A stretch of 64,000 nt of DNA from Myxococcota bacterium (lineage in GTDB: Bacteria; Myxococcota_A; SURF-8; G963663525): positions 66,536 through 130,535 of the forward strand of contig CAXXVK010000012.1 of the NCBI GenBank assembly GCA_963676915.2. Direction: 5' to 3'. Below the pieces are notes generated by a model, which saw only the letters and a program-made list of their open reading frames with translations, ran no database searches and had not been told where the DNA came from. Both the position numbers and the translations under genes were made by a program. This document shows, piece after piece, positions 24,135-34,403 of this stretch; positions within the stretch are counted from its first letter, which is position 1; each line of letters starts with the position of its first letter.

Positions 24135-24660
24135 ATTGTGACCTCCGGTTCGGTCGAGCTGAATTTCTGCACAACAATAATCGCTTCTACGAAAAGATCG
24201 TCTCCCCCCGTTCTGTGCGTTCTCGTTACTATAGCAGATTTCCTCGATTCCCAAGCTGAAAACATGAAAAAAGCCTTTCACTGCCGAAACGATCTGAGAT
24301 GCAATGAAGAGTGTAATCAGTCGAGTGGTCATTTTCTAAAGATTTTGAGAAGAAATCGGATCTTAGGTTTTCTCATAGGAAGGATCGTTAAGTTTCGTTC
24401 ACATGGCAGAACGATCTGTAAAGGGAAGTTGTCTTTGGGGGAAATCTTGTCAAATATCCAACTCATCGCCAAAGGAACGATGTGAAAGCAAATCGAAGAC
24501 GAAAAACAGAACCTCTCAAAATAAAAGATCTAAAAAAGCGTTATAATTCCAGCATGTTGAAAATACTGGACAAGATTTCTCCGTAAAGGCAGGATAAAAT
24601 AAGGACAAAGAAAAAACATAGTTTTTTCCTTTCCATTTAAATCGAAAGAATATCCGTTTA

Positions 24661-24676
24661 TGGCATCGGTTTTGCA
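24661..24676 (+). promoter_or_regulatory. Sigma54 promoter of the Kazal lipoprotein gene
   Basis: TGGCATCGGTTTTGCA, a near-consensus -24/-12 site, about 43 bp upstream of ATG 24720. Confidence 0.8.
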
Positions 24677-24719
24677 AAATCTATTGAGACGAGATATTGG
24701 ATTAAGACATGGAACGGCC

Positions 24720-26837
24720 ATGAAAAACTTTTTAACATTCTCTTTGGTTCTCCTTTTTATCACGGTGCAAGGCTGCGTCCTGCAATCCAGCGATTCCGTT
24801 GCAGGAGTCAACGACGCTGCCGGTGACAACAGGGACGACGAACAAAACGGTACGGGAGACCTTTCTCCTGATGGTTCCGTAGACGACTCCGAGTATCCCA
24901 ACAGTTCAGGAGGGGATGAAGAAGAGATCAACGGACAAGAAGGTGATGGTGATCCTTCTTCGTCCCATGCTGATGATCTGATCCTACCGTTTCTTGTGAA
25001 TCTTAGCGGTCTGCAAGACCTTTTCGGAGAAGAGCTGACCAGCTACAATATCGATTACGGCGAACAAACCGACCTGATGCTGACCGAAACGTCCCCCTAC
25101 GCCGGCATCACTTTCGACGCTTTGGCAGGAGCCAATATCACCGCAACGGTTTCGGCTCCCTCCGATAGCTTCGTAAGCCCTGTTCTTGTCCTGTACGGCC
25201 CGAAAAGCTCAACAGGATTGTGGAGCCGAGAAATCGCCATGAAAATCGCCGATGAAGGTCAGCACGAAGCATTTCTGTACTCGATTCCCATCGATACCGA
25301 AGGCCAATATCTCCTGTTGGCAACGGGACTTCCCATCATCCCGGATACACCCCTGGAAGTCACATTGGGTTGCCATGGACAATGCGTCGAGCCGTATTGC
25401 CCCGACAACACCTGTCAGGCGTTTTGTCCCGAAGGTTTCCGATTGGACGCCAACGGCTGCCCGTCCTGCCAATGCCGGGAAGCGACCTGTTCCTGTCTCG
25501 AAGACGAAGATTGCCCCCAAGGTCATTATTGTATGGATTGCCAGTGCCTCCCGGAAGAAAATCCTCCCGATGGCGACGATGACCTTTGCGGATGTCCCGA
25601 CGATTGGGATCCCGTATGTACCGAGGACGGTACGCAATTCGCCAACGATTGCATAGCGTTATGCCTGCTTGGTCCAGAGACAACCTTCATGCCCTGCAAC
25701 GATCCGGGTGACACTTGCGTGACCGATGAAGATTGCATTGAAGGCACCATGTGCGTCGCGGGGGTCTGCTCGGCCAATACCGATTGCAACTGTACAGGCA
25801 TTTACGATCCAGTGTGTGGCGTCAACGGCGTAACCTATGCCAACGAATGCGAAGCGTCCTGCATCGGTGTGGCAATTGCCTACATCGGCGATTGCTCCGA
25901 CCCCGCAAACCTGATTTGCGAACCGGTCTGTATCAGCGCTTCGGGTACTGAAGCCTGGAACTTCCCTTGCACGGGAGACGTGGTATTCGATAGCTGTTTG
26001 GGCTGTTACGCCTCCTGCGACCAGGCCGAAACTCGTCAGGAAGGTTGGTACGCCCACTGCATCATTGACGACATCGGCGAAGAAACGATCACCTTGATTC
26101 AGTATGCTGACTGCGTACTCAACTGCGGTTGCCCGGATACTTGGGAGCCTGTTTGCAGTCTCGATGGTGTAACCTATCCCAACCTCTGTGAACTTGACTG
26201 TGCCGACGCGATGTTCGGCTACGAAGGAGAATGCGAGGAAGGTATTTTCGGATGCCTTGAAAACAGCGACTGCCCGACCGGAGAAATCTGCATGCTCGAC
26301 AATCTCGAAGGTTGCTCCGAAGACGATTACGGTTCCAGCCCGGAATGCACCGGCTTTTGCATAGAGTATCCCGACGTTAACGACATGCCCTGTACAGCCA
26401 ACGCGGACTGCCCCGCCGGTTATGCATGCGTCGAAGGATATTGTCAGGTTTCCTGGAGCGCGGACGACTGCATCATTACGGGGAGACATGGTGAAATCTG
26501 CGCGAACGAAGAAGTCACGACGCAATCAGCCTATTCCGACGAATTTGCATGCTATGGACTCTCCGAATGCACGCTCCTTGAAACCGGCGAGTGCGGTTGG
26601 CTGGAGACCCCGGATTTTCTGGAATGTCTGAGTTTCACAGGTCGCACGGAATGCGACTCCGATGGACAATGCACAAGTGGCCAATATTGCTCAGCCGAAG
26701 GTTTTTGCCAGACAATGGACTGCCAGTGCCCCGGCATCGTGATGCCGATCTGCCTCCCGGACGGCAACCGATATGCAAGCCCTTGCATTGCCGCCTGCGA
26801 AAACATTACGGAAGAGCAAATCGACTTCTGTGAATAG
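24720..26837 (+). CDS. Cys-rich lipoprotein with PPC-like domain, antistasin-like module and four Kazal-type domains
   Basis: Lipobox VQGC; Kazal CPDDWDPVCTEDGTQFANDC, CTGIYDPVCGVNGVTYANEC, CPDTWEPVCSLDGVTYPNLC, CPGIVMPICLPDGNRYASPC; antistasin-like CQAFCPEGFRLDANGCPSCQC. Confidence 0.85.
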   Translation: MKNFLTFSLVLLFITVQGCVLQSSDSVAGVNDAAGDNRDDEQNGTGDLSPDGSVDDSEYPNSSGGDEEEINGQEGDGDPSSSHADDLILPFLVNLSGLQDLFGEELTSYNIDYGEQTDLMLTETSPYAGITFDALAGANITATVSAPSDSFVSPVLVLYGPKSSTGLWSREIAMKIADEGQHEAFLYSIPIDTEGQYLLLATGLPIIPDTPLEVTLGCHGQCVEPYCPDNTCQAFCPEGFRLDANGCPSCQCREATCSCLEDEDCPQGHYCMDCQCLPEENPPDGDDDLCGCPDDWDPVCTEDGTQFANDCIALCLLGPETTFMPCNDPGDTCVTDEDCIEGTMCVAGVCSANTDCNCTGIYDPVCGVNGVTYANECEASCIGVAIAYIGDCSDPANLICEPVCISASGTEAWNFPCTGDVVFDSCLGCYASCDQAETRQEGWYAHCIIDDIGEETITLIQYADCVLNCGCPDTWEPVCSLDGVTYPNLCELDCADAMFGYEGECEEGIFGCLENSDCPTGEICMLDNLEGCSEDDYGSSPECTGFCIEYPDVNDMPCTANADCPAGYACVEGYCQVSWSADDCIITGRHGEICANEEVTTQSAYSDEFACYGLSECTLLETGECGWLETPDFLECLSFTGRTECDSDGQCTSGQYCSAEGFCQTMDCQCPGIVMPICLPDGNRYASPCIAACENITEEQIDFCE

Positions 26838-26872
26838 CTGTTACAAAACAAGCCAAAATACCCATAAACAAA

Positions 26873-26906
26873 AAAGCGGGTCGGATAATTTCTTCCGACC
26901 CGCTTT
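26873..26906 (-). terminator. Intrinsic terminator between convergent genes
   Basis: Stem AAAGCGGGTCGGA/TCCGACCCGCTTT with a U-rich tail on the minus strand. Confidence 0.8.
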
Positions 26907-26938
26907 AAATTTTCAATGCTTCTTTTACCCTTCCCAAC

Positions 26939-28216
26939 TCAACTTTGAGTCTCGGGTATAAGGGAAATATCGCTGTTGTCATCTTGCAACAGGCGACATA
27001 TTCCTACGGCTTCCGGGTAATCCGAGGTTTCGTGGTTCAACGTCGCTTCGATAACTTCGGGATCGGGTTCCTGATAGTTTTCCGGCTCCTGATACGTCGT
27101 AATCACCCCTTCGTAATTCCTCAATACGGATTTGCTCCCAGAACAAGAAAGCTGGTAGTTCGGCTGGACCGGAATTTTTCCGCCACCACCGGGAGCGTCG
27201 ATGACGTAAACCGGACGAGCATAGCCGCTGGTATGACCGATGAGACTTTCGACGATCTCTATACCTTTGCCGATCGGAGTGCGGAAGTGATTGAGTCCCT
27301 CGGACATATCACACTGGAAAAGATAGTAGGGACGAACCCTGTTCTGTACGAGCAGGTGAACCAGTTTCTTCATTACGAGGGGAGAATCGTTGACTCCAGC
27401 CAGCAGAACCGATTGATTTCCCAACGGAATCCCGGCATCCGCCAAACGAGCCAAGGCTTTCCGTGAAGCCGATGTAAACTCCCTCGGGTGATTGAAATGC
27501 GTATTGATCCACAACGGATGATGCTTTTTCAGCATTGTGACGAGCTCATCATCAATGCGGAACGGCAACACCACCGGCGTGCGCGTACCAATGCGAACGA
27601 TCTCCACATGGTCGATTTCCCGCAAACGGGTCAGGATATCGTCCAGAAAATCCGTAGGTAGCATGAACGGATCTCCGCCGGAGACCAGAACGTCACGGAT
27701 TTCCGGATTGCTACGAATGTATTCGATTCCTGCAGTGATTCGCTCTTTGCTCGGAATAAAGTCTGTTTTGCCGACTTTGCGCTTTCGTGTACAGTGGCGG
27801 CAGTACATCGCACAGGTATTGCTCACCAGAAACAACACTCGGTCGGGATAGCGCTTCGTCACCCCGAGAACCGGGCTGTCACGTTCCTCGGCCAACGGAT
27901 CTTCCATTTCGAAATCCGTCCGCTCCAATTCCTTTGGAGAAGGAAAAGCCTGCTTGAAGATCGGATCGACCTCCAAATTTTTCCTATCGATCAACGAAGC
28001 ATAATACGGAGTAATCGCCAGCGGGAAGGTTTTCAATGTTTTCTCGAACGTTCGCCGCAACTCAGCCGGTAAAGAAATTCCCAGAGCTTCTTCGAAATCA
28101 GGAACTGTTTTTATGGCGTTTTTTACCTGCCATCTCCAATTTTCCCAACGTTCTCGCTCTATTTCCTGATATCCACGTTCTTCGTTGAACTTAATGTCAC
28201 CTGTAAGCGTATCCAT
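26939..28216 (-). CDS. ablA: Lysine 2,3-aminomutase (KamA/AblA, radical SAM + PLP)
   Basis: [54 protein letters not shown]; clustered with ablB. Confidence 0.93.
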
Positions 28217-28261
28217 GTCTCCTCACACGTTTTTTCACCCAACCAATCCGGGTGAATGGGT

Positions 28262-29434
28262 TTACTGTCGGTTCATCTTCCCGTCAAGCGTTTCCGTTTC
28301 CGAAACGAATGAACCGACGGTCTGCGCCGTATCGGCGTGACCTTTTTCACTGTTTATACAAACCTTTTCTATGTATTTATTGTTCATACAGCGTAAGAGC
28401 GCTGAATAAGATAATTTGAATGAAACTTTCGACCCCAACTCCACGCCATTTTTCCGATTTCCGACATTCAACACCGTAATATCGCTGCTCGCTCCGGCAA
28501 TCTGGTAGCGTGTCTCCAGAGGCGTTAGTCCCGACACATCCGTATCGAGTTGACCGATATTAATCAAAGCACGATACCCTCTCTGTCCAGGCAAGTGCGA
28601 ATCGTCCACTTCCATATCAAAAGGTGATGTCTCGCTGTTCGTCTCTCCTAAGGGAACCAAACTTTTTTCTTTGATTTCGGCAACTTCCGCTTCGAGGATC
28701 ATCACGTCGTCCCGCAGTTCGGGAAGCAAACCGCCATTGATCAGATCGGTCCCCAGGAACACGGCTTCTCCAATGCGAAAGTGATTGATTCTCTTGGGTA
28801 ATTGATTTTCGACCATCAAGGGAAGAACAGCCGTAGTACCGGCGGAAACGAAAGGGATTTTCCGCTCGAACTTCAACTCCAACAGTTCGTGATACAGTAA
28901 CAACTGCATCAATTGATCCACTGTTGGCACAACTCCCGTCAAGCACCCGAGATTGGCACCCAAACCAACGACTTCGATATTGGGCAGATTAAACACACGT
29001 TTGTAAAACGACACCAAATGCCCCGGTAGGATTCCCTCCCGAAGATCGCCCAATTCAATCATGATCACGATTTTATGAACTTTTTTGCGTCGCCGCGCTT
29101 CTTCATCGAGCAATTCGATAACTTTTGTCTCCGTAACGAGACTGACATCAGCCCATTCAATCACGCCTTCGACTTCCGACTGAACAGGTGGACGAAGATA
29201 CCACGTTTCGCATTCTGGGAACACATTTCGAATGACTTCCAGGTTTTCTAGCCTGGAATCGCCGAGCGATCTGATACCAGACTTCCCCAACGCATGGATT
29301 GTATCTTGGTGCCCGCAAAGCACTTTTGTCACGATCGTACAATTTGCACCAAATTGACGCATTTGCCTTTCGATCACCGAAAGGTTGTGATTCATAGCTT
29401 CCAGATCAATGATGAGACGGCTCATTGCATCCAC
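28262..29434 (-). CDS. Alanine/ornithine racemase family PLP enzyme
   Basis: VTKV (PLP Lys), GDSRLEN, ELGDLREG, GANLGC, NHFRIGEA, GASSD. Confidence 0.88.
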   Translation of the reverse strand: MDAMSRLIIDLEAMNHNLSVIERQMRQFGANCTIVTKVLCGHQDTIHALGKSGIRSLGDSRLENLEVIRNVFPECETWYLRPPVQSEVEGVIEWADVSLVTETKVIELLDEEARRRKKVHKIVIMIELGDLREGILPGHLVSFYKRVFNLPNIEVVGLGANLGCLTGVVPTVDQLMQLLLYHELLELKFERKIPFVSAGTTAVLPLMVENQLPKRINHFRIGEAVFLGTDLINGGLLPELRDDVMILEAEVAEIKEKSLVPLGETNSETSPFDMEVDDSHLPGQRGYRALINIGQLDTDVSGLTPLETRYQIAGASSDITVLNVGNRKNGVELGSKVSFKLSYSALLRCMNNKYIEKVCINSEKGHADTAQTVGSFVSETETLDGKMNRQ

Positions 29435-30381
29435 CTCATTTCCGCGTGGGTCTGCCTGAATCCGAGACGTTCATACAGGCGCTTTGCAGGATTGATGTAT
29501 TCCACATGCAGTTTGATCGGTCCATCTGTCCGTTTCATCGCCTCACGAATCAAAGCGGCTCCGATCCCGGATTTCCTTCTATTGGGATCGACGCAAATGA
29601 AAAGCAACAGGTTTTCCGGCATTATATGTTTTACTCCGGTTCGCAACATGACCAATGCTCCGCAAAATACATCGTCCACGAAGCCAAGAAGAACGAAACC
29701 GCCTGAGCTGTCCGATACTCCAAGCGCGTAATCCAAACCCCGTTTCACATCCCGTAGACGATCTTCATAAGGTTTCATGTAAACGTGAAGAAACTCGGCT
29801 AAAGCATCCTTTCCAAGTTTTTCCGGAAGATCGTTTAGCGACGAAGCTTCCATAATTTTCACCACCGATTGTAACCGCTTCATATCGTCCGTCGAATGTG
29901 AAGATTCAAATCTCATTTCTGCATAGGGATTACTAAAGCCTTGTTTCTCCAGAAAATTTCGAGCAATGCTTTGAGCAGGAACGTGACATTTGATACTTCC
30001 CGGAGTTTTCTCCTGCGCAAACCGCAGCAATCGACTTCCGATCCCTTTACGACGCTCGGATGACAAAACCATCATAACAGCAATCAGGGTTTCGGGAATG
30101 TAACCTTTCATCCCCGTCTCCATAGCAACCAGTGCGCCTTGTAACGCACCATTTTTTATCGCAAGAAACATACTTCCGAAGGCTTTTTCAGAAGTCGCCA
30201 AAGCGACATCAATCGACTCAAGAATCGCTTCTCGTCCTATCGAAGCAATCAAATCGTCATCCCCCAGTAAAAATTCGGAAACATCGAACCTTGTCACACC
30301 CTCGGGAAAATCAGCTTGTTCCTGAACAAAGACGAGTTCGAAATCAAGAAGCGGTTCGGATTGGCTTTCACTGTCTTGCAT
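29422..30381 (-). CDS. Tandem (two-domain) GNAT N-acetyltransferase
   Basis: Two homologous halves with RRKGIGSRLL and RRKSGIGAALI acetyl-CoA motifs, each followed by IKxHV..A..LE..GF...AEMR. Confidence 0.88.
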   Translation of the reverse strand: MQDSESQSEPLLDFELVFVQEQADFPEGVTRFDVSEFLLGDDDLIASIGREAILESIDVALATSEKAFGSMFLAIKNGALQGALVAMETGMKGYIPETLIAVMMVLSSERRKGIGSRLLRFAQEKTPGSIKCHVPAQSIARNFLEKQGFSNPYAEMRFESSHSTDDMKRLQSVVKIMEASSLNDLPEKLGKDALAEFLHVYMKPYEDRLRDVKRGLDYALGVSDSSGGFVLLGFVDDVFCGALVMLRTGVKHIMPENLLLFICVDPNRRKSGIGAALIREAMKRTDGPIKLHVEYINPAKRLYERLGFRQTHAEMRWMQ

Positions 30382-30406
30382 AATTTCGCTTCTCCAGTAA
30401 TCTGAT

Positions 30407-31486
30407 TTATTTCGAGAGTCGTTTGACCCAGATATTCATGTCCTCGAAATGGCCGAAAATGTCGCAATTATTCACCAATCGTCCCGAAAACTCATACCCG
30501 AGTTTGAAAAACGAACGATTCATACCGATGCTCATCCCTCGCGCCAACGTATAGGCCGTCATGATGCCTTCACGTTCCAGATCGCCTTCCAAGCGCGTCA
30601 GAAGATGCTGCATCAGACCTTTTCCCTGTGCTTCCGGCACCGTGGCGCAGTCTGTCATTTCGGCATTGAGGTGCTTGCGATCCATGTCGGCGCTGGCCGC
30701 AGCAAGAGCCGATTCTCCTTTGACCGCCATTCGATAAATCAGATTGTGGTCCATCGTGGATTTGATGTAATCCGGGTTCGTCAGCGGCGACGGATACGTC
30801 TTGAAAACGCTTCGATAAATCGCCGCCAACAGGGGAATATGTTCTTCGGTAGCCCGAATGATATCGATTTCCGGGTCTAGAGGGTGAATATCCCCCGGTT
30901 CGGAATGATACATCAGGGTTTCGATCAGCTTCGCTTCTTCCAGCAAGTCGGAGCTGCTTACACGCTGAACCGACGAAAAACGCGACAAAACATAGGCATC
31001 TTCCCCACGGAAATAGTAACGCAAAACACCTTCCATCATGTAACCGTGGGATAGGAAGATCTGAAAATCCTCCTTTTTCGCTTTTACGAAAATCTTGTCG
31101 AAGTCATTGGCTTCCGCCAGATAGGCCAAACGACGAATCATAGCGGTGTAATCGGAAGCGTCGTAATCCGCGACTTTCAGCCGCTTGTTGTAATAGTCAA
31201 AGAAAACGTTGACGTTGTATCCATCGCCTTCGAGATCGAAATCCAATCCATATACGGTACCGACCACGGTTGTTTTCACCCCCTTATCCAACGTGAACTG
31301 AACCAACCCCATCTCTTTGTCCGTGGGTTCCAGTCCTCCCCACTCGTCGGTCATCTGCTCGATGTCGTCGATGCCATCGACACAATGAACCGCAGGCGTA
31401 CTCTCGTCGTTTTTTAAAACCGCCACGTCGGATTGTTCGTCATGCGAGGGTGACGCTTCCGCCTCCTGTTTCTCCGTTTTCGTCAT
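30407..31486 (-). CDS. ablB: Beta-lysine N-acetyltransferase
   Basis: FDKIFVKA, VFKTYPSPL, NAEMTDCAT..QGKGLM, TAYTLAR..SIGMN, GRLVNNCDI..FEDMNIWVK. Confidence 0.9.
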   Translation of the reverse strand: MTKTEKQEAEASPSHDEQSDVAVLKNDESTPAVHCVDGIDDIEQMTDEWGGLEPTDKEMGLVQFTLDKGVKTTVVGTVYGLDFDLEGDGYNVNVFFDYYNKRLKVADYDASDYTAMIRRLAYLAEANDFDKIFVKAKKEDFQIFLSHGYMMEGVLRYYFRGEDAYVLSRFSSVQRVSSSDLLEEAKLIETLMYHSEPGDIHPLDPEIDIIRATEEHIPLLAAIYRSVFKTYPSPLTNPDYIKSTMDHNLIYRMAVKGESALAAASADMDRKHLNAEMTDCATVPEAQGKGLMQHLLTRLEGDLEREGIMTAYTLARGMSIGMNRSFFKLGYEFSGRLVNNCDIFGHFEDMNIWVKRLSK

Positions 31487-32898
31487 TGATTTTCCTCCAG
31501 TAAAACATTTTTCGATGTCGAGGGTTTTGCAAGCGTTATCAGAACAAGAACTACCGCCGATAGTGGGAGAGCAATAAGAATCGGTTCATCGACGGGGTTG
31601 AGAGATGGAACAATATTAAGTATCAAAGCCGCAAAACCACCGACGATCATGCTCCAAAATGCTGCTGTGGAGGACACCCGCTTCCACAGCAATCCTCCCA
31701 GCGTCGGTATAAACAAACCGGACACCATAAACGAATAAGCCAGCAAAATACTATCGAGCACCTTCGGCACGGCGAGAGCAATGACAATCGCCCCTACACC
31801 GATCACCAAAGTGGCGATTCGGCTGACGTTCAGCACGCGACGTTCCGAAGCCTTGGGATCGATGTATTTCTGGTAAATGTCGTTGACCAGATTACCAACC
31901 GACGCCAGCAGGCAGCTATCCGCCGTGGACATGATCGCCGAAAAATAGGCGGCACTGACCAGACCGATCAGACCTATGGGCAACACGTTTTTAATCAGCA
32001 TCGGCAAGGCCATCTCGGATTCGGCATCGGGAAACATCACCCGACCGAACATCCCCAGCAATACACCAAGAAACGCCATGACCGGCCATTCGAGCAATCC
32101 GGCCAGGTACCAGGCTTTTTTGGCGGTTTGCACGTCTCGGGTAGCGTAAATTCTCTGATACAACGTCATTCCAACGAACCAGATAGGAACGATGGTAAAC
32201 ATCCAGGTCAGAAATTTTCCTATCGTGATGTTGGTCATGCTGAAATGTTCGGCTGGCAGACTCTCTCGAATGGTCTGCCATCCTCCGATTTCCGCATACG
32301 AAAACGGCAAGGCGAACAACAGCAAACCACCGAGCAAAACGACCCATTGGATGGAGTCGGTATAAATTACCGCCTGAATACCACCGAATGATGTGTAAAG
32401 AATAGCTACACCCGCCATGACGACCACGGCCGTCAGCAAACCTACATCGAAAACCGCGCTTCCCAGTTTGGCTCCGGCCAGGATCTGTGCTCCGACAAAT
32501 CCGGCATAGCCGACGCCGGAAACAATGGCCGCCACGAGTCTCGTTTTCGAATCGAAACGCTTTTCAAGAAAATCGGGATAGGTGAGCAGTCCGAAACGAT
32601 CTCCAAGACGTTTCACACGAGGAATCAGCAACACTGCCGCCAACCAGGCTCCCAACAGGCCGCTGAACAGCAGCCAGGAACCCGACAAACCCATCGCAAA
32701 GCCCAAACCGCCCAAACCAATGGAAAATCCACCGCCTACATCCGTCGCCACCACTGAAAAACCGATATGGCCCGCACTCATGTTACGGTCACCGACGAAA
32801 TACTCGTCAACGCTGGTCTGTCGCCTCATGAAAAAGAAGCCGACCCCTAACATTGCAACCATATAGAGAGCGATAATGCCGAAATCGATCCAATGCAT
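31483..32898 (-). CDS. Sodium:solute symporter (PutP-like)
   Basis: About 13 TM helices; EYFVGDR, YTSFGGIQAVIYTD, YQRIYA, SAIMSTADS; stop overlaps the ablB start. Confidence 0.93.
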   Translation of the reverse strand: MHWIDFGIIALYMVAMLGVGFFFMRRQTSVDEYFVGDRNMSAGHIGFSVVATDVGGGFSIGLGGLGFAMGLSGSWLLFSGLLGAWLAAVLLIPRVKRLGDRFGLLTYPDFLEKRFDSKTRLVAAIVSGVGYAGFVGAQILAGAKLGSAVFDVGLLTAVVVMAGVAILYTSFGGIQAVIYTDSIQWVVLLGGLLLFALPFSYAEIGGWQTIRESLPAEHFSMTNITIGKFLTWMFTIVPIWFVGMTLYQRIYATRDVQTAKKAWYLAGLLEWPVMAFLGVLLGMFGRVMFPDAESEMALPMLIKNVLPIGLIGLVSAAYFSAIMSTADSCLLASVGNLVNDIYQKYIDPKASERRVLNVSRIATLVIGVGAIVIALAVPKVLDSILLAYSFMVSGLFIPTLGGLLWKRVSSTAAFWSMIVGGFAALILNIVPSLNPVDEPILIALPLSAVVLVLITLAKPSTSKNVLLEENQ

Positions 32899-32906
32899 AA
32901 CGCTCG

Positions 32907-33404
32907 CTACCCTTCTTCGGAGTCATCGATATCGATCGACTCCAATCCTTCCAGCATAATGGACCCTTTTTTAGGAGATCGAAGCAAAGCGTCGTCTTCT
33001 TCCTTGGGAATTTTTTCCTCGAAGGCTTCTTTTTCGGGCTTAGTCAATTGGCGAATCGTATCTTCTACCGAAAGGATCAGATCGCGGCGATCTTCTTTGG
33101 GAAATTTTCGCATCAAACCGAGAATGAACCGGACTCCAGCAAGGTTCACCTTCTCGACGGACACCAGATAATGGATAAACGTCAATAATTCCACGTCTCT
33201 TTGAGAGTAAAGCCGCCGATTGCCATCGGATCTCGCCGGGAAAATAACCCCCTTGGACTCATAAACGCGAAGTTGCTTTTGCGACGTGCCGATCATATCG
33301 GCAACCACACCGATGGGGAACATACCTTTGGAAGGATCTGCTATTCGCATCTTTCGCCTCGATGATTTCCGATAAGCCTCAAACATGACCTTGACAACAT
33401 TCAT
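32907..33404 (-). CDS. MerR-family (HspR-like) transcriptional regulator
   Basis: FPIGVVADMIG..QLRVYE..G..PARSDGNRRLYSQRD..VNLAGV; start uncertain. Confidence 0.88.
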   Translation of the reverse strand: MNVVKVMFEAYRKSSRRKMRIADPSKGMFPIGVVADMIGTSQKQLRVYESKGVIFPARSDGNRRLYSQRDVELLTFIHYLVSVEKVNLAGVRFILGLMRKFPKEDRRDLILSVEDTIRQLTKPEKEAFEEKIPKEEDDALLRSPKKGSIMLEGLESIDIDDSEEG

Positions 33405-33430
33405 TTACTTCCCTATCATTAGGCATGTTT

Positions 33431-33459
33431 TATGTACCACTCAGGGAAAGGAGTGTCAA
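33431..33459 (-). promoter_or_regulatory. Sigma70-type promoter of the merR-abl operon
   Basis: Minus strand TTGACA-17 bp-TACATA. Confidence 0.6.
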
Positions 33460-33617
33460 GGCTCAATCAGACATCTTCAAGATAAACTCGCTCTTCATAG
33501 TAAAAATCACACGAAATTCATTCATTTTCGTTCACAATCAGTGCTTTGTATACCTTCTTTAAGGTGCATTTTATTGCCTAACTAAAGACAGATTTTTACT
33601 CACACGAAAGGAAAACC

Positions 33618-34403
33618 TTGGACTTCGGGAGATTTTCGCAAATGTTTCATATTGGGTTCAGAACCGAAACGAAAAAGTGTGCAAAAAAACTTGAGTCAAA
33701 CCTTCCATTTCGCATCTTTTCGCAAAGATGCCTTTTCCGTGGAGTCAATCACGGGACTCGGAGTTTCTATTTTCCATTTTTAGTTACACTGTTTTTTTTA
33801 ATGATTCTGGGATTCCCAGGCTGGTCACAAGCGGAAGAAGAAGCCACGGCACCAAGTGAAAGTTCGAAAGAAAAACAAGACGAGATCCTCGACGAAGACG
33901 ACTGCTCGTTACTTTTCGGTTCGGAAGAGCTTGAAAAAGAGAACGAACAGCATCGCGAGAAACGGTTGGAACACGTCATGGAATCCAACGGAATTATCAC
34001 GATCATGCATCACTCCAAACAATGGAGCGAAGCCACACACGGCATGTGCGAGGGCATTGAGCTGGAAACGATCGAAAAAGACGAAAACGGCGAATATCTG
34101 GCCATTTTCGAGGTAGGCGAAGACATTGCCGAAATGTATGATTGCGAACCGGGACTGTACGAAGTTTCCCAAGATGCCTCCATTTTTTCGCAAGCTGCCG
34201 TTTTGTGGATCGACAAACGCTTCGTTCTTCTGGGCTACGAAGGCGAATTGACTTACCTGACTCCCGACCCGGAAAACCGGTACATCGTGCGCATGATCTG
34301 GCAATCGCCTTGGACTATCTCCCGCCCGAAAGAACCTTCGAGAAGCCGCAGCAATAGCCGTCGCAGTCGACGACACAGAAAAAGCCGTAGAAGACGACGA
34401 TAA
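33618..34403 (+). CDS. Hypothetical exported acidic protein with Arg/Ser-rich tail (true start probably further downstream)
   Basis: Hydrophobic signal ending SQA; acidic body; C-terminus SRSRSNSRRSRRHRKSRRRRR. Confidence 0.6.
   Translation: MDFGRFSQMFHIGFRTETKKCAKKLESNLPFRIFSQRCLFRGVNHGTRSFYFPFLVTLFFLMILGFPGWSQAEEEATAPSESSKEKQDEILDEDDCSLLFGSEELEKENEQHREKRLEHVMESNGIITIMHHSKQWSEATHGMCEGIELETIEKDENGEYLAIFEVGEDIAEMYDCEPGLYEVSQDASIFSQAAVLWIDKRFVLLGYEGELTYLTPDPENRYIVRMIWQSPWTISRPKEPSRSRSNSRRSRRHRKSRRRRR

Follow-up and report, generated by a model that had tools for sequence, protein, structure and literature searches.

A composite acetyl-beta-lysine operon with an inserted acetyltransferase–racemase pair in a Myxococcota bacterium

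In the abl pathway, lysine is isomerised and then acetylated in a salt-dependent manner, as far as the available text of two reports describes it (PMC1224877, PMC9049628). N-delta-acetylornithine, N-epsilon-acetyl-lysine and N-alpha-acetyl-lysine are also reported compatible solutes; the pathways to N-acetylated diamino-acid solutes are set out there without a racemase, and ShKAT, the lysine N-alpha-acetyltransferase of Salinicoccus halodurans, does not accept D-lysine (available portion of PMC9049628). Ornithine racemase uses Cys-164 and Lys-36 as its acid/base pair, carries Asn-161 in place of a His, and binds pyridoxal 5′-phosphate (PLP) with the help of two Arg residues; the Salmonella enzyme, OrnR, had no activity on lysine, and its gene also sits with transporter homologues (PMC13397332, as far as its accessible text goes). 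Here we describe a six-gene operon in the window, a 64,000-nucleotide stretch of a Myxococcota bacterium genome (assembly GCA_963676915.2, contig CAXXVK010000012.1, positions 66,536 to 130,535), in which the genes for the two abl enzymes, lysine 2,3-aminomutase (AblA) and beta-lysine N-acetyltransferase (AblB), stand on either side of genes for a tandem GNAT acetyltransferase and a PLP racemase of the ornithine racemase type. The operon is a composite, in which a GNAT–racemase unit has been inserted into an ancestral unit of merR, a sodium:solute symporter (SSS) gene, ablB and ablA.

An inserted pair in an ancestral abl unit

The composite structure is evident from a genome of the same genus, G001 (G and L numbers are our handles for genomes and loci), in which merR, SSS, ablB and ablA are contiguous (locus L112) and encode proteins 83, 86, 82, and 78% identical to those of the window. 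The flanking genes on the merR side match those of the window, and ablB and ablA are separated by 158 nucleotides with nothing in between. Because this contiguous arrangement exists without the GNAT–racemase pair, the pair represents an insertion of about 2.2 kb in the present operon, which bears out the original prediction that the racemase and the second acetyltransferase are additions between ablB and ablA. The last 14 or so nucleotides before the ablA start (TGTGAGGAGAC) are common to the window and G001. A search of G001 with the GNAT as query did not find the module, and for the racemase that genome offers only a paralogue of 34% identity on a different contig.

Among the 40 relatives searched, AblB scored above its cut-off in seven genomes besides this one (G000), close relatives of the racemase (57–59% identity) were found in two others (G003 and G006), and the two proteins occur together only in G000, which holds this one member of the racemase family alone. 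G003 has the GNAT–racemase pair as well. In a FastTree phylogeny, the racemase of G000 clusters, with weak support (82), with its counterparts from G003 and G006, and the GC content at third codon positions (GC3) is 0.45 in the GNAT gene vs. 0.56–0.61 in its neighbors. In three genomes belonging to one family of the order (G004, G005, and G007; L113–L115), merR, SSS and ablB lie together and ablA is on another contig or far off, so that the conserved core in this taxonomic order is regulator–transporter–ablB rather than ablA–ablB.

The operon itself is confirmed: all six open reading frames (ORFs) are co-oriented, head to tail, on the minus strand where the original prediction had placed them, and the promoter, the terminator and the two overlapping junctions that were predicted with them agree with the ORFs, family scores, hairpin and promoter hexamers now in hand (Table 1). 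AblA and AblB both exceed their curated equivalog cut-offs within one operon; the AblA translation contains the CxxxCxxC cluster motif (CAMYCRHC) and matches the Pfam Radical_SAM and LAM_C domains. The TIGR03827 match of AblB covers residues 96–357 and is preceded by an N-terminal extension of about 95 amino acids, of which residues 1–60 are variable and acidic and residues ~61–95 are conserved in same-phylum homologues (DEWxGLEPTxKxMGLVQxTLDKGVKTT...). The SSS protein belongs to the TIGR00813 superfamily without reaching the substrate-specific equivalogs (PutP, 159 vs. 515 bits). SSS and ablB overlap by ATGA, and the GNAT and racemase genes most likely do so too, with the racemase starting at ATG 29425 rather than GTG 29434, which gives a protein of 387 amino acids and is where the homologues and the database gene call P0001 begin. 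The remaining gaps are 8 nucleotides (merR/SSS), 25 nucleotides (ablB/GNAT), and 45 nucleotides (racemase/ablA). A 41.5-kb Logan contig, probably derived from the same data as the window, spans positions 26800–33600 with zero differences. A search for sequencing runs containing the stretch listed a single DNA source and no RNA run.

Table 1. Features of the operon and its control region (positions in the window).
Feature	Position	Strand	Basis
merR, MerR-family HspR-like regulator, 165 amino acids	32907..33404	-	MerR_1, 58 bits
SSS sodium:solute symporter, clade A	31483..32898	-	TIGR00813, 190 bits (cut-off 184)
ablB, beta-lysine N-acetyltransferase	30407..31486	-	TIGR03827, 290 bits (cut-off 205)
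Tandem GNAT	29422..30381	-	Two GNAT stretches by Pfam
GNAT domain 1, residues 1–160, degenerate	29902..30381	-	30% identical to domain 2
GNAT domain 2, residues 161–319 plus stop, module-type acetyltransferase	29422..29901	-	Family signature kept
OrnR-type PLP racemase	28262..29434 (probable start ATG 29425)	-	Ala_racemase_N, 73 bits; Orr model
ablA, lysine 2,3-aminomutase	26939..28216	-	TIGR03820, 668 bits (cut-off 525)
Inserted segment (two short spacers, GNAT-GNAT, racemase)	28217..30406	-	Missing from same-genus genome G001
Terminator-like hairpin, 13 pairs (8 G-C) and T run	26873..26906	-	32 nucleotides past the ablA stop codon
Promoter-like site, TTGACA (33459–33454), 17-nucleotide spacer, TACATA (33436–33431)	33431..33459	-	Read from sequence
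Opposing promoter-like site, TTGACA, 17 nucleotides, TATCAT	33391..33419	+	11/12 matches; faces operon promoter

Just downstream of ablA, on the plus strand (24660–26837), lies a gene whose 725-amino-acid product combines protease-inhibitor domains of the Kazal and antistasin types with a Cys-rich repeat; no relative was found at the equivalent position of G001, and a Haemadin-like match adjoins ablB in G007.

The GNAT–racemase module

Outside this operon, GNAT and racemase form a module that is autonomous and widespread. Searching species-representative genomes with a racemase profile gave 225 confirmed places, 80 of which are covered by the locus counts given here; the metagenomic AblB counts cover 80 of 524 places. 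Locus ORFs were called crudely, adjacency was judged by tblastn, and genomes that are related do not count as independent cases. A single-domain GNAT of about 165 amino acids lies directly upstream of the racemase, in the same orientation, in 75/80 loci (three of the other five sit at contig edges), and the gap between the two genes is 26 nucleotides or less in 74 of those 75. By record title, the carriers fall into at least 17 phylum-level groups, mostly uncultured lineages, and include Zixibacteria, Ignavibacteria, Acidobacteria, Myxococcota, Planctomycetes, and Verrucomicrobia. The GNAT–racemase gene pair was not described in the literature searched, nor linked there to N-acetylated solutes.

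Association with ablAB is rare. Both ablA and ablB occur within 10 kb of the racemase in 1/80 loci (L081, Thermoanaerobaculia, where ablA-ablB is divergent from GNAT-racemase); in the 50 of the 80 carrier genomes with longer contigs, an AblB of at least 190 bits was found in four (two of them above the cut-off) and none in the other 46; and the module GNAT is present in 0/80 metagenomic AblB loci and beside 0/7 other AblB loci in relatives. Since the pair so seldom lies beside ablAB, a beta-lysine derivative cannot, judging by gene neighborhoods, be the usual substrate of the module. The original prediction had set a synteny survey as its test; these counts do not support a pair kept beside ablAB, and with its conservation there absent in the surveyed loci the proposed "expanded beta-lysine pathway" falls away. 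The wider suggestion of a second or modified solute, or of D-amino-acid handling, stands as the leading reading, minus the part in which the beta-lysine pathway itself is modified.

What does accompany the module, within 6–10 kb, is a transporter (SSS symporter, 42/80 loci), an Alr-type racemase (28/80), an M20 amidohydrolase (24/80), a class I S-adenosylmethionine (SAM) methyltransferase (12/80), or an arginine gene (ArgD-like transaminase, 6/80; ArgC, 5/80); the ArgD-like class III transaminases of L024, L035, and L083 have 495–531 amino acids. In an extended form of the module (L012, L015, L018, L023, L028, L035, L083, and others), the M20 amidohydrolase, whose best model is DoeB2 at a score under its cut-off, and the Alr-type racemase are both added, giving two racemases per operon. 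Another form has a 367-amino-acid class I SAM methyltransferase between racemase and SSS. A locus labeled Bathyarchaeia archaeon (L033) carries a bacterial-type GNAT-racemase-methyltransferase-SSS arrangement at 59% identity, reflecting either transfer or a binning error.

The module and the abl unit share a transporter clade. A tree of 30 SSS sequences was composed of the window's own protein, 13 ablAB-linked rows (four from relatives and nine of 13 metagenome loci, leaving out L134, L138, and L193 (partial) and L163 (near-identical to L161)), five of seven module-linked rows of the window type (leaving out L045, a split match, and L070, near-identical to L066), and 11 other module-linked rows picked for their full-length matches. 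It resolved into two deep clades: clade A, in which the window's protein, the 13 ablAB-linked and the five module-linked proteins are intermixed, and clade B, with the other 11. The branches starred in this tree require at least three to four switches of partner, and the intermixing indicates that one transporter clade serves both units in different lineages; a window-type SSS stands beside AblB in 13/80 metagenome loci and beside the module in 7/80. In one metagenomic locus (L141 7001–12698), ablB and a clade-A SSS are followed at a distance of 2.4 kb by an OrnR-family paralogue of 32% identity, with which no module GNAT is associated.

The regulator type is shared as well, and heads either unit (ablB or GNAT-racemase) within this order. 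MerR homologues of 62–83% identity head merR-SSS-ablB in G001, G004, G005, and G007, and a 59% identical homologue heads GNAT-racemase, with a similar promoter, in the same-order genome G006. MerR-type control, which the original prediction had considered unusual for abl genes, is thus no peculiarity of this locus, merR-SSS-ablB being conserved in four other genomes of the order. In three related UBP7 genomes (L066 8038–16347; L067, L070), a clade-A SSS, GNAT and racemase are followed by argB, argD, argC, and argJ and then by a gene for a 298-amino-acid MerR-like protein. There, argJ is single-copy and argC has a second copy elsewhere; because of the single argJ, we rejected the idea that these arg genes are a second set reserved for supplying a solute.

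The racemase matches the Orr model (NF040742) over its full length with 297.5 bits (E = 1e-88), under the cut-off of 480, and by sequence it is a subfamily related to, and distinct from, Orr. In an alignment of 20 family members, K37, R132, N161, C164, R220, and Y343 are invariant; alignment with Alr-type proteins of the same loci equates K37 with the PLP lysine, R132 with the Arg, N161 with the PLP-stacking His, C164 with position His+3, R220 with the second Arg, and Y343 with the tyrosine of NYE. The Lys/Cys/Asn/two-Arg signature of ornithine racemase is therefore present, as that signature is given in the accessible part of PMC13397332, the equivalence to Salmonella residues 36, 164, 161, 129, and 220 being drawn from position, motif and the Alr-type alignment. 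The Ala_racemase_N domain and the modeled fold place the protein in fold-type III, the alanine racemase superfamily: an AlphaFold2 model (predicted local distance difference test score, pLDDT, 78.9) has alanine, lysine, and broad-spectrum racemases as its top Foldseek matches (template modeling scores 0.62–0.71, around 0.66). A phmmer search of PDB sequences found nothing, and a profile search reached only a lysine racemase, at E = 0.012.

The GNAT of this operon departs from the usual form in being doubled. Domain 1 keeps the acetyl-CoA loop (RRKGIG) but has HVP for HVE, SIA for NPA, and Phe for the Tyr of RLYER; domain 2 has the loop RKSGIG together with HVEYINPAKRLYERLGF, displays the GNAT family signature, and is 41–48% identical to the single-domain GNATs that precede the racemase elsewhere. 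In a set of 97 homologues (175–559 amino acids), coverage of the tandem GNAT exceeds 58% only for the protein of the window itself, and so the GNAT-GNAT fusion was not found elsewhere. In the AlphaFold2 model, pLDDT is mostly above 85 in the C-terminal domain and below 60 in the N-terminal half, to which the alignment gives no depth; a quick tree of GNAT domains was unresolved, with the N-terminal half on a very long branch. Profile searches returned only remote Naa30/RimI-type matches, with no characterized close relative found. Many module GNATs (~340–350 amino acids; L011 8898–10004, P0122–P0215) are fused to an N-terminal MarR-type helix-turn-helix (HTH) domain; Acidobacteria, Hydrogenedentota and Nitrospirales are among the groups in which this bifunctional type, regulator and acetyltransferase in one, lies ahead of the racemase.

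The control region

The operon promoter was not listed by a consensus scan because its second hexamer ends in A; its pattern, CTTGAC...GGTAnAT, is found again upstream of merR in G001, G005, and G006. Promoter-like sites are not enriched in the region (four observed vs. 7.5 expected from shuffles). The operon promoter is faced by a second promoter-like site, and the CCTTGACA boxes of the two form an 8-nucleotide inverted repeat (33389–33396 and 33454–33461), 57 nucleotides apart. The upstream region of G001 has the same facing layout, with TTGACA, 17 nucleotides, and TAACAT as the equivalent plus-strand site. With promoters placed in this way, the operon and the divergent gene at 33618 could be transcribed in a mutually exclusive manner. 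That gene (33618–34403, plus strand) encodes a protein that belongs to no Pfam or NCBIfam family; a stretch resembling a signal peptide is joined to an acidic body, and the tail is very basic, of Arg and Ser. Its relatives, at 30–72% identity, adjoin merR in G001, G004, G005, and, with strand reversed, G007.

The merR gene may start at ATG 33350 (M19, with GAGG before it; 147 amino acids), as its homologues in G005 and G006 do. HspR (NF047375) is the best NCBIfam model for the regulator, at 64 bits against a cut-off of 105, which leaves it outside that family by score. No dyad resembling the HspR-associated inverted repeat (HAIR) was seen at 33340–33640, the sole inverted repeat at the promoter being the CCTTGACA pair, and an alignment of six merR upstream regions showed conservation of only the −35 box and the GGTA-type box, with no convincing operator dyad. 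An Rfam search of the whole window found no family, so no riboswitch accounts for control.

Function of the pair and comparison with known systems

The insertion, the autonomy of the module, the racemase signature, the arginine-gene neighbors, and the shared SSS clade and regulator type lead us to favor, tentatively and at somewhat less than even chances, a reading in which racemisation and acetylation by the pair turn ornithine, or a basic amino acid like it, into a second zwitterionic solute; its substrate, acetylation site, stereochemistry and solute role we infer. Two self-sufficient units would here be fused under one stress regulator. The unit ancestral in the order (merR, clade-A SSS, ablB, ablA) would convert lysine to N-epsilon-acetyl-beta-lysine, its SSS probably importing or recapturing a solute. 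The unit inserted between ablB and ablA would comprise a small GNAT, translationally coupled to the ornithine-racemase-type PLP enzyme and present here as a fused pseudo-dimer with one half degenerate. The racemase would use its Lys/Cys pair to convert ornithine, or a similar basic amino acid, between L and D forms, and the GNAT would acetylate one amino group, pulling the equilibrium toward a zwitterion without net charge, akin to N-acetyl-ornithine or N-acetyl-lysine. Such a product would give the cell a second compatible solute, one inert in metabolism, whose synthesis follows the isomerise-then-cap logic of AblA and AblB.

Several observations weigh against this proposal. No member of the module has known chemistry; the M20 deacetylase-like (24/80) and Alr-type racemase (28/80) neighbors are unexplained by it and look catabolic, and the SAM methyltransferase (12/80) and transaminase neighbors are likewise unexplained. 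The MarR HTH fusions of many module GNATs hint at regulation rather than bulk synthesis, and some of the samples that contain the module bear labels with no hint of salt. Because its argJ is the only copy in the genome, the UBP7 operon serves housekeeping arginine synthesis rather than acting as a dedicated supply line. A lysine product is made less likely by the inactivity of Salmonella OrnR on lysine (PMC13397332, accessible text).

A bolder version of the proposal, which we regard as speculative and rather doubtful, would make racemase and GNAT a second widespread isomerise-then-cap solute route parallel to AblA/AblB, leading from L-ornithine to a zwitterion of the N-acetyl-D-ornithine type that the cell's L-specific enzymes would ignore, with the clade-A SSS as the uptake or recapture system for N-acetyl diamino-acid solutes, including acetyl-beta-lysine. 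Were it true, it would provide genes for N-acetylornithine-type solutes, a D-amino-acid-derived osmolyte, and the first transporter family for acetyl-beta-lysine; how N-epsilon-acetyl-beta-lysine is made is already understood, and to our knowledge genes for related bacterial solutes such as N-delta-acetylornithine have not been assigned.

Two catabolic or homeostatic explanations draw on much the same neighborhoods. The module might serve salvage or detoxification of basic D-amino acids, the SSS importing racemic amino acids from necromass, the racemase turning D-ornithine or D-lysine into the L forms (which would feed AblA), and the GNAT acetylating toxic D-forms. The transporters (42/80), Alr-type racemases (28/80), and M20 amidohydrolases (24/80) near the module would fit such a role, as would the mostly uncultured, sediment-type lineages of its carriers by record title, and Salmonella OrnR is likewise found with transporter homologues; that enzyme, however, lacks lysine activity (both points from the accessible text of PMC13397332). 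Salvage also gives no account of the very tight coupling of GNAT and racemase in almost every locus, of the placement in arginine-biosynthesis operons, or of the regulator type common with ablB, and the SSS of the present operon was already part of the ancestral abl unit, so that the insertion did not bring it in; we consider salvage unlikely. No likelier, in our estimate, is a role in ornithine and arginine homeostasis or in acetyl-protected catabolism, for which the succinyl-protected arginine succinyltransferase (AST) pathway offers an analogy. Here the GNAT would make N-alpha-acetylornithine from free or imported (D or L) ornithine, and the acetylornithine would re-enter arginine synthesis or be degraded via an ArgD-like transaminase and an M20 deacetylase; within an abl operon, the effect would be to tune the pools of nitrogen and of basic amino acids during stress. 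Such a role would suit the position of the pair inside the sole arginine operon of UBP7 genomes, the ArgD-like class III transaminases of L024, L035, and L083, and the DoeB2/ArgE-like M20 proteins of 24/80 loci, but transaminase, dehydrogenase and deacetylase did not accompany the pair into the present operon, and it would not be obvious why the module is tied to a transporter clade and regulator of the ablAB type.

The remaining alternatives concern the insertion itself. That the pair yields an epimerised, or a doubly or differently acetylated, beta-lysine is suggested by its nested position between ablB and ablA, with co-transcription implied by gene spacing, and by the one further lineage (L081) in which ablA-ablB is divergent from GNAT-racemase. 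Against it, 46/50 carriers lack an AblB of at least 190 bits, ablAB is near the module in 1/80 loci, and the module GNAT is in 0/80 AblB loci; moreover, as is generally known, PLP racemases of this type act at the alpha carbon of an alpha-amino acid. This explanation we hold to be very improbable. The pair might otherwise be a passenger that landed by chance and is functionally unrelated to osmoprotection, as its restriction to this one genome (0/7 other AblB loci in relatives, 0/80 in metagenomes) and the low GC3 of the GNAT gene (0.45, below the 0.56–0.61 of its neighbors) would allow. The insertion is nevertheless clean, with the ribosome-binding region of ablA kept, gaps of just 25 and 45 nucleotides, and reading frames intact; the transporter clade and regulator type are common to both units in other genomes; and FastTree groups the racemase, if weakly (82), with same-order ones. 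We regard a chance passenger as improbable.

Whatever its product, the pair is a compact two-gene module that is conserved across at least 17 phylum-level lineages and has at its center the Cys-type ornithine racemase, an enzyme type defined only recently. Three ties join it to a known osmolyte system: physical insertion, a shared transporter clade and a shared regulator type. For acetyl-beta-lysine systems of bacteria, the locus also suggests which transporter family and which MerR-type regulator are candidates.

Each described system resembles part of this operon. HspR provides the top NCBIfam model for its regulator; HspR controls chaperones, whereas this regulator heads solute genes, scores under the HspR cut-off and has no HAIR-type operator in view. 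Mycothiol synthase MshD is a tandem GNAT with one inactive domain and, like the GNAT here, has two GNAT domains in one chain with catalytic residues only in the C-terminal one; the profile match to MshD is weak, the similarity is remote (E about 1e-3), and the fusion here is probably a local duplication of the module GNAT. ShKAT is a small GNAT that caps a basic amino acid to give a zwitterion, as the GNAT here would do. With OrnR/Orr (Salmonella STM2358 and Clostridium sticklandii Orr), the racemase shares a full-length model match, the catalytic signature and the fold-type III fold, but the partners of Orr are D-ornithine aminomutase or D-ornithine/lysine decarboxylase, and those of the operon's racemase are a GNAT and a symporter. 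The systems of Methanosarcina mazei (abl operon) and Bacillus subtilis (yodP-kamA) likewise have ablA and ablB in one operon; in the present one, by comparison, the two genes are split by the 2.2-kb insertion, AblB has its extension of about 95 amino acids, and an SSS and a MerR/HspR-like regulator, conserved in five genomes of the order, complete the unit.

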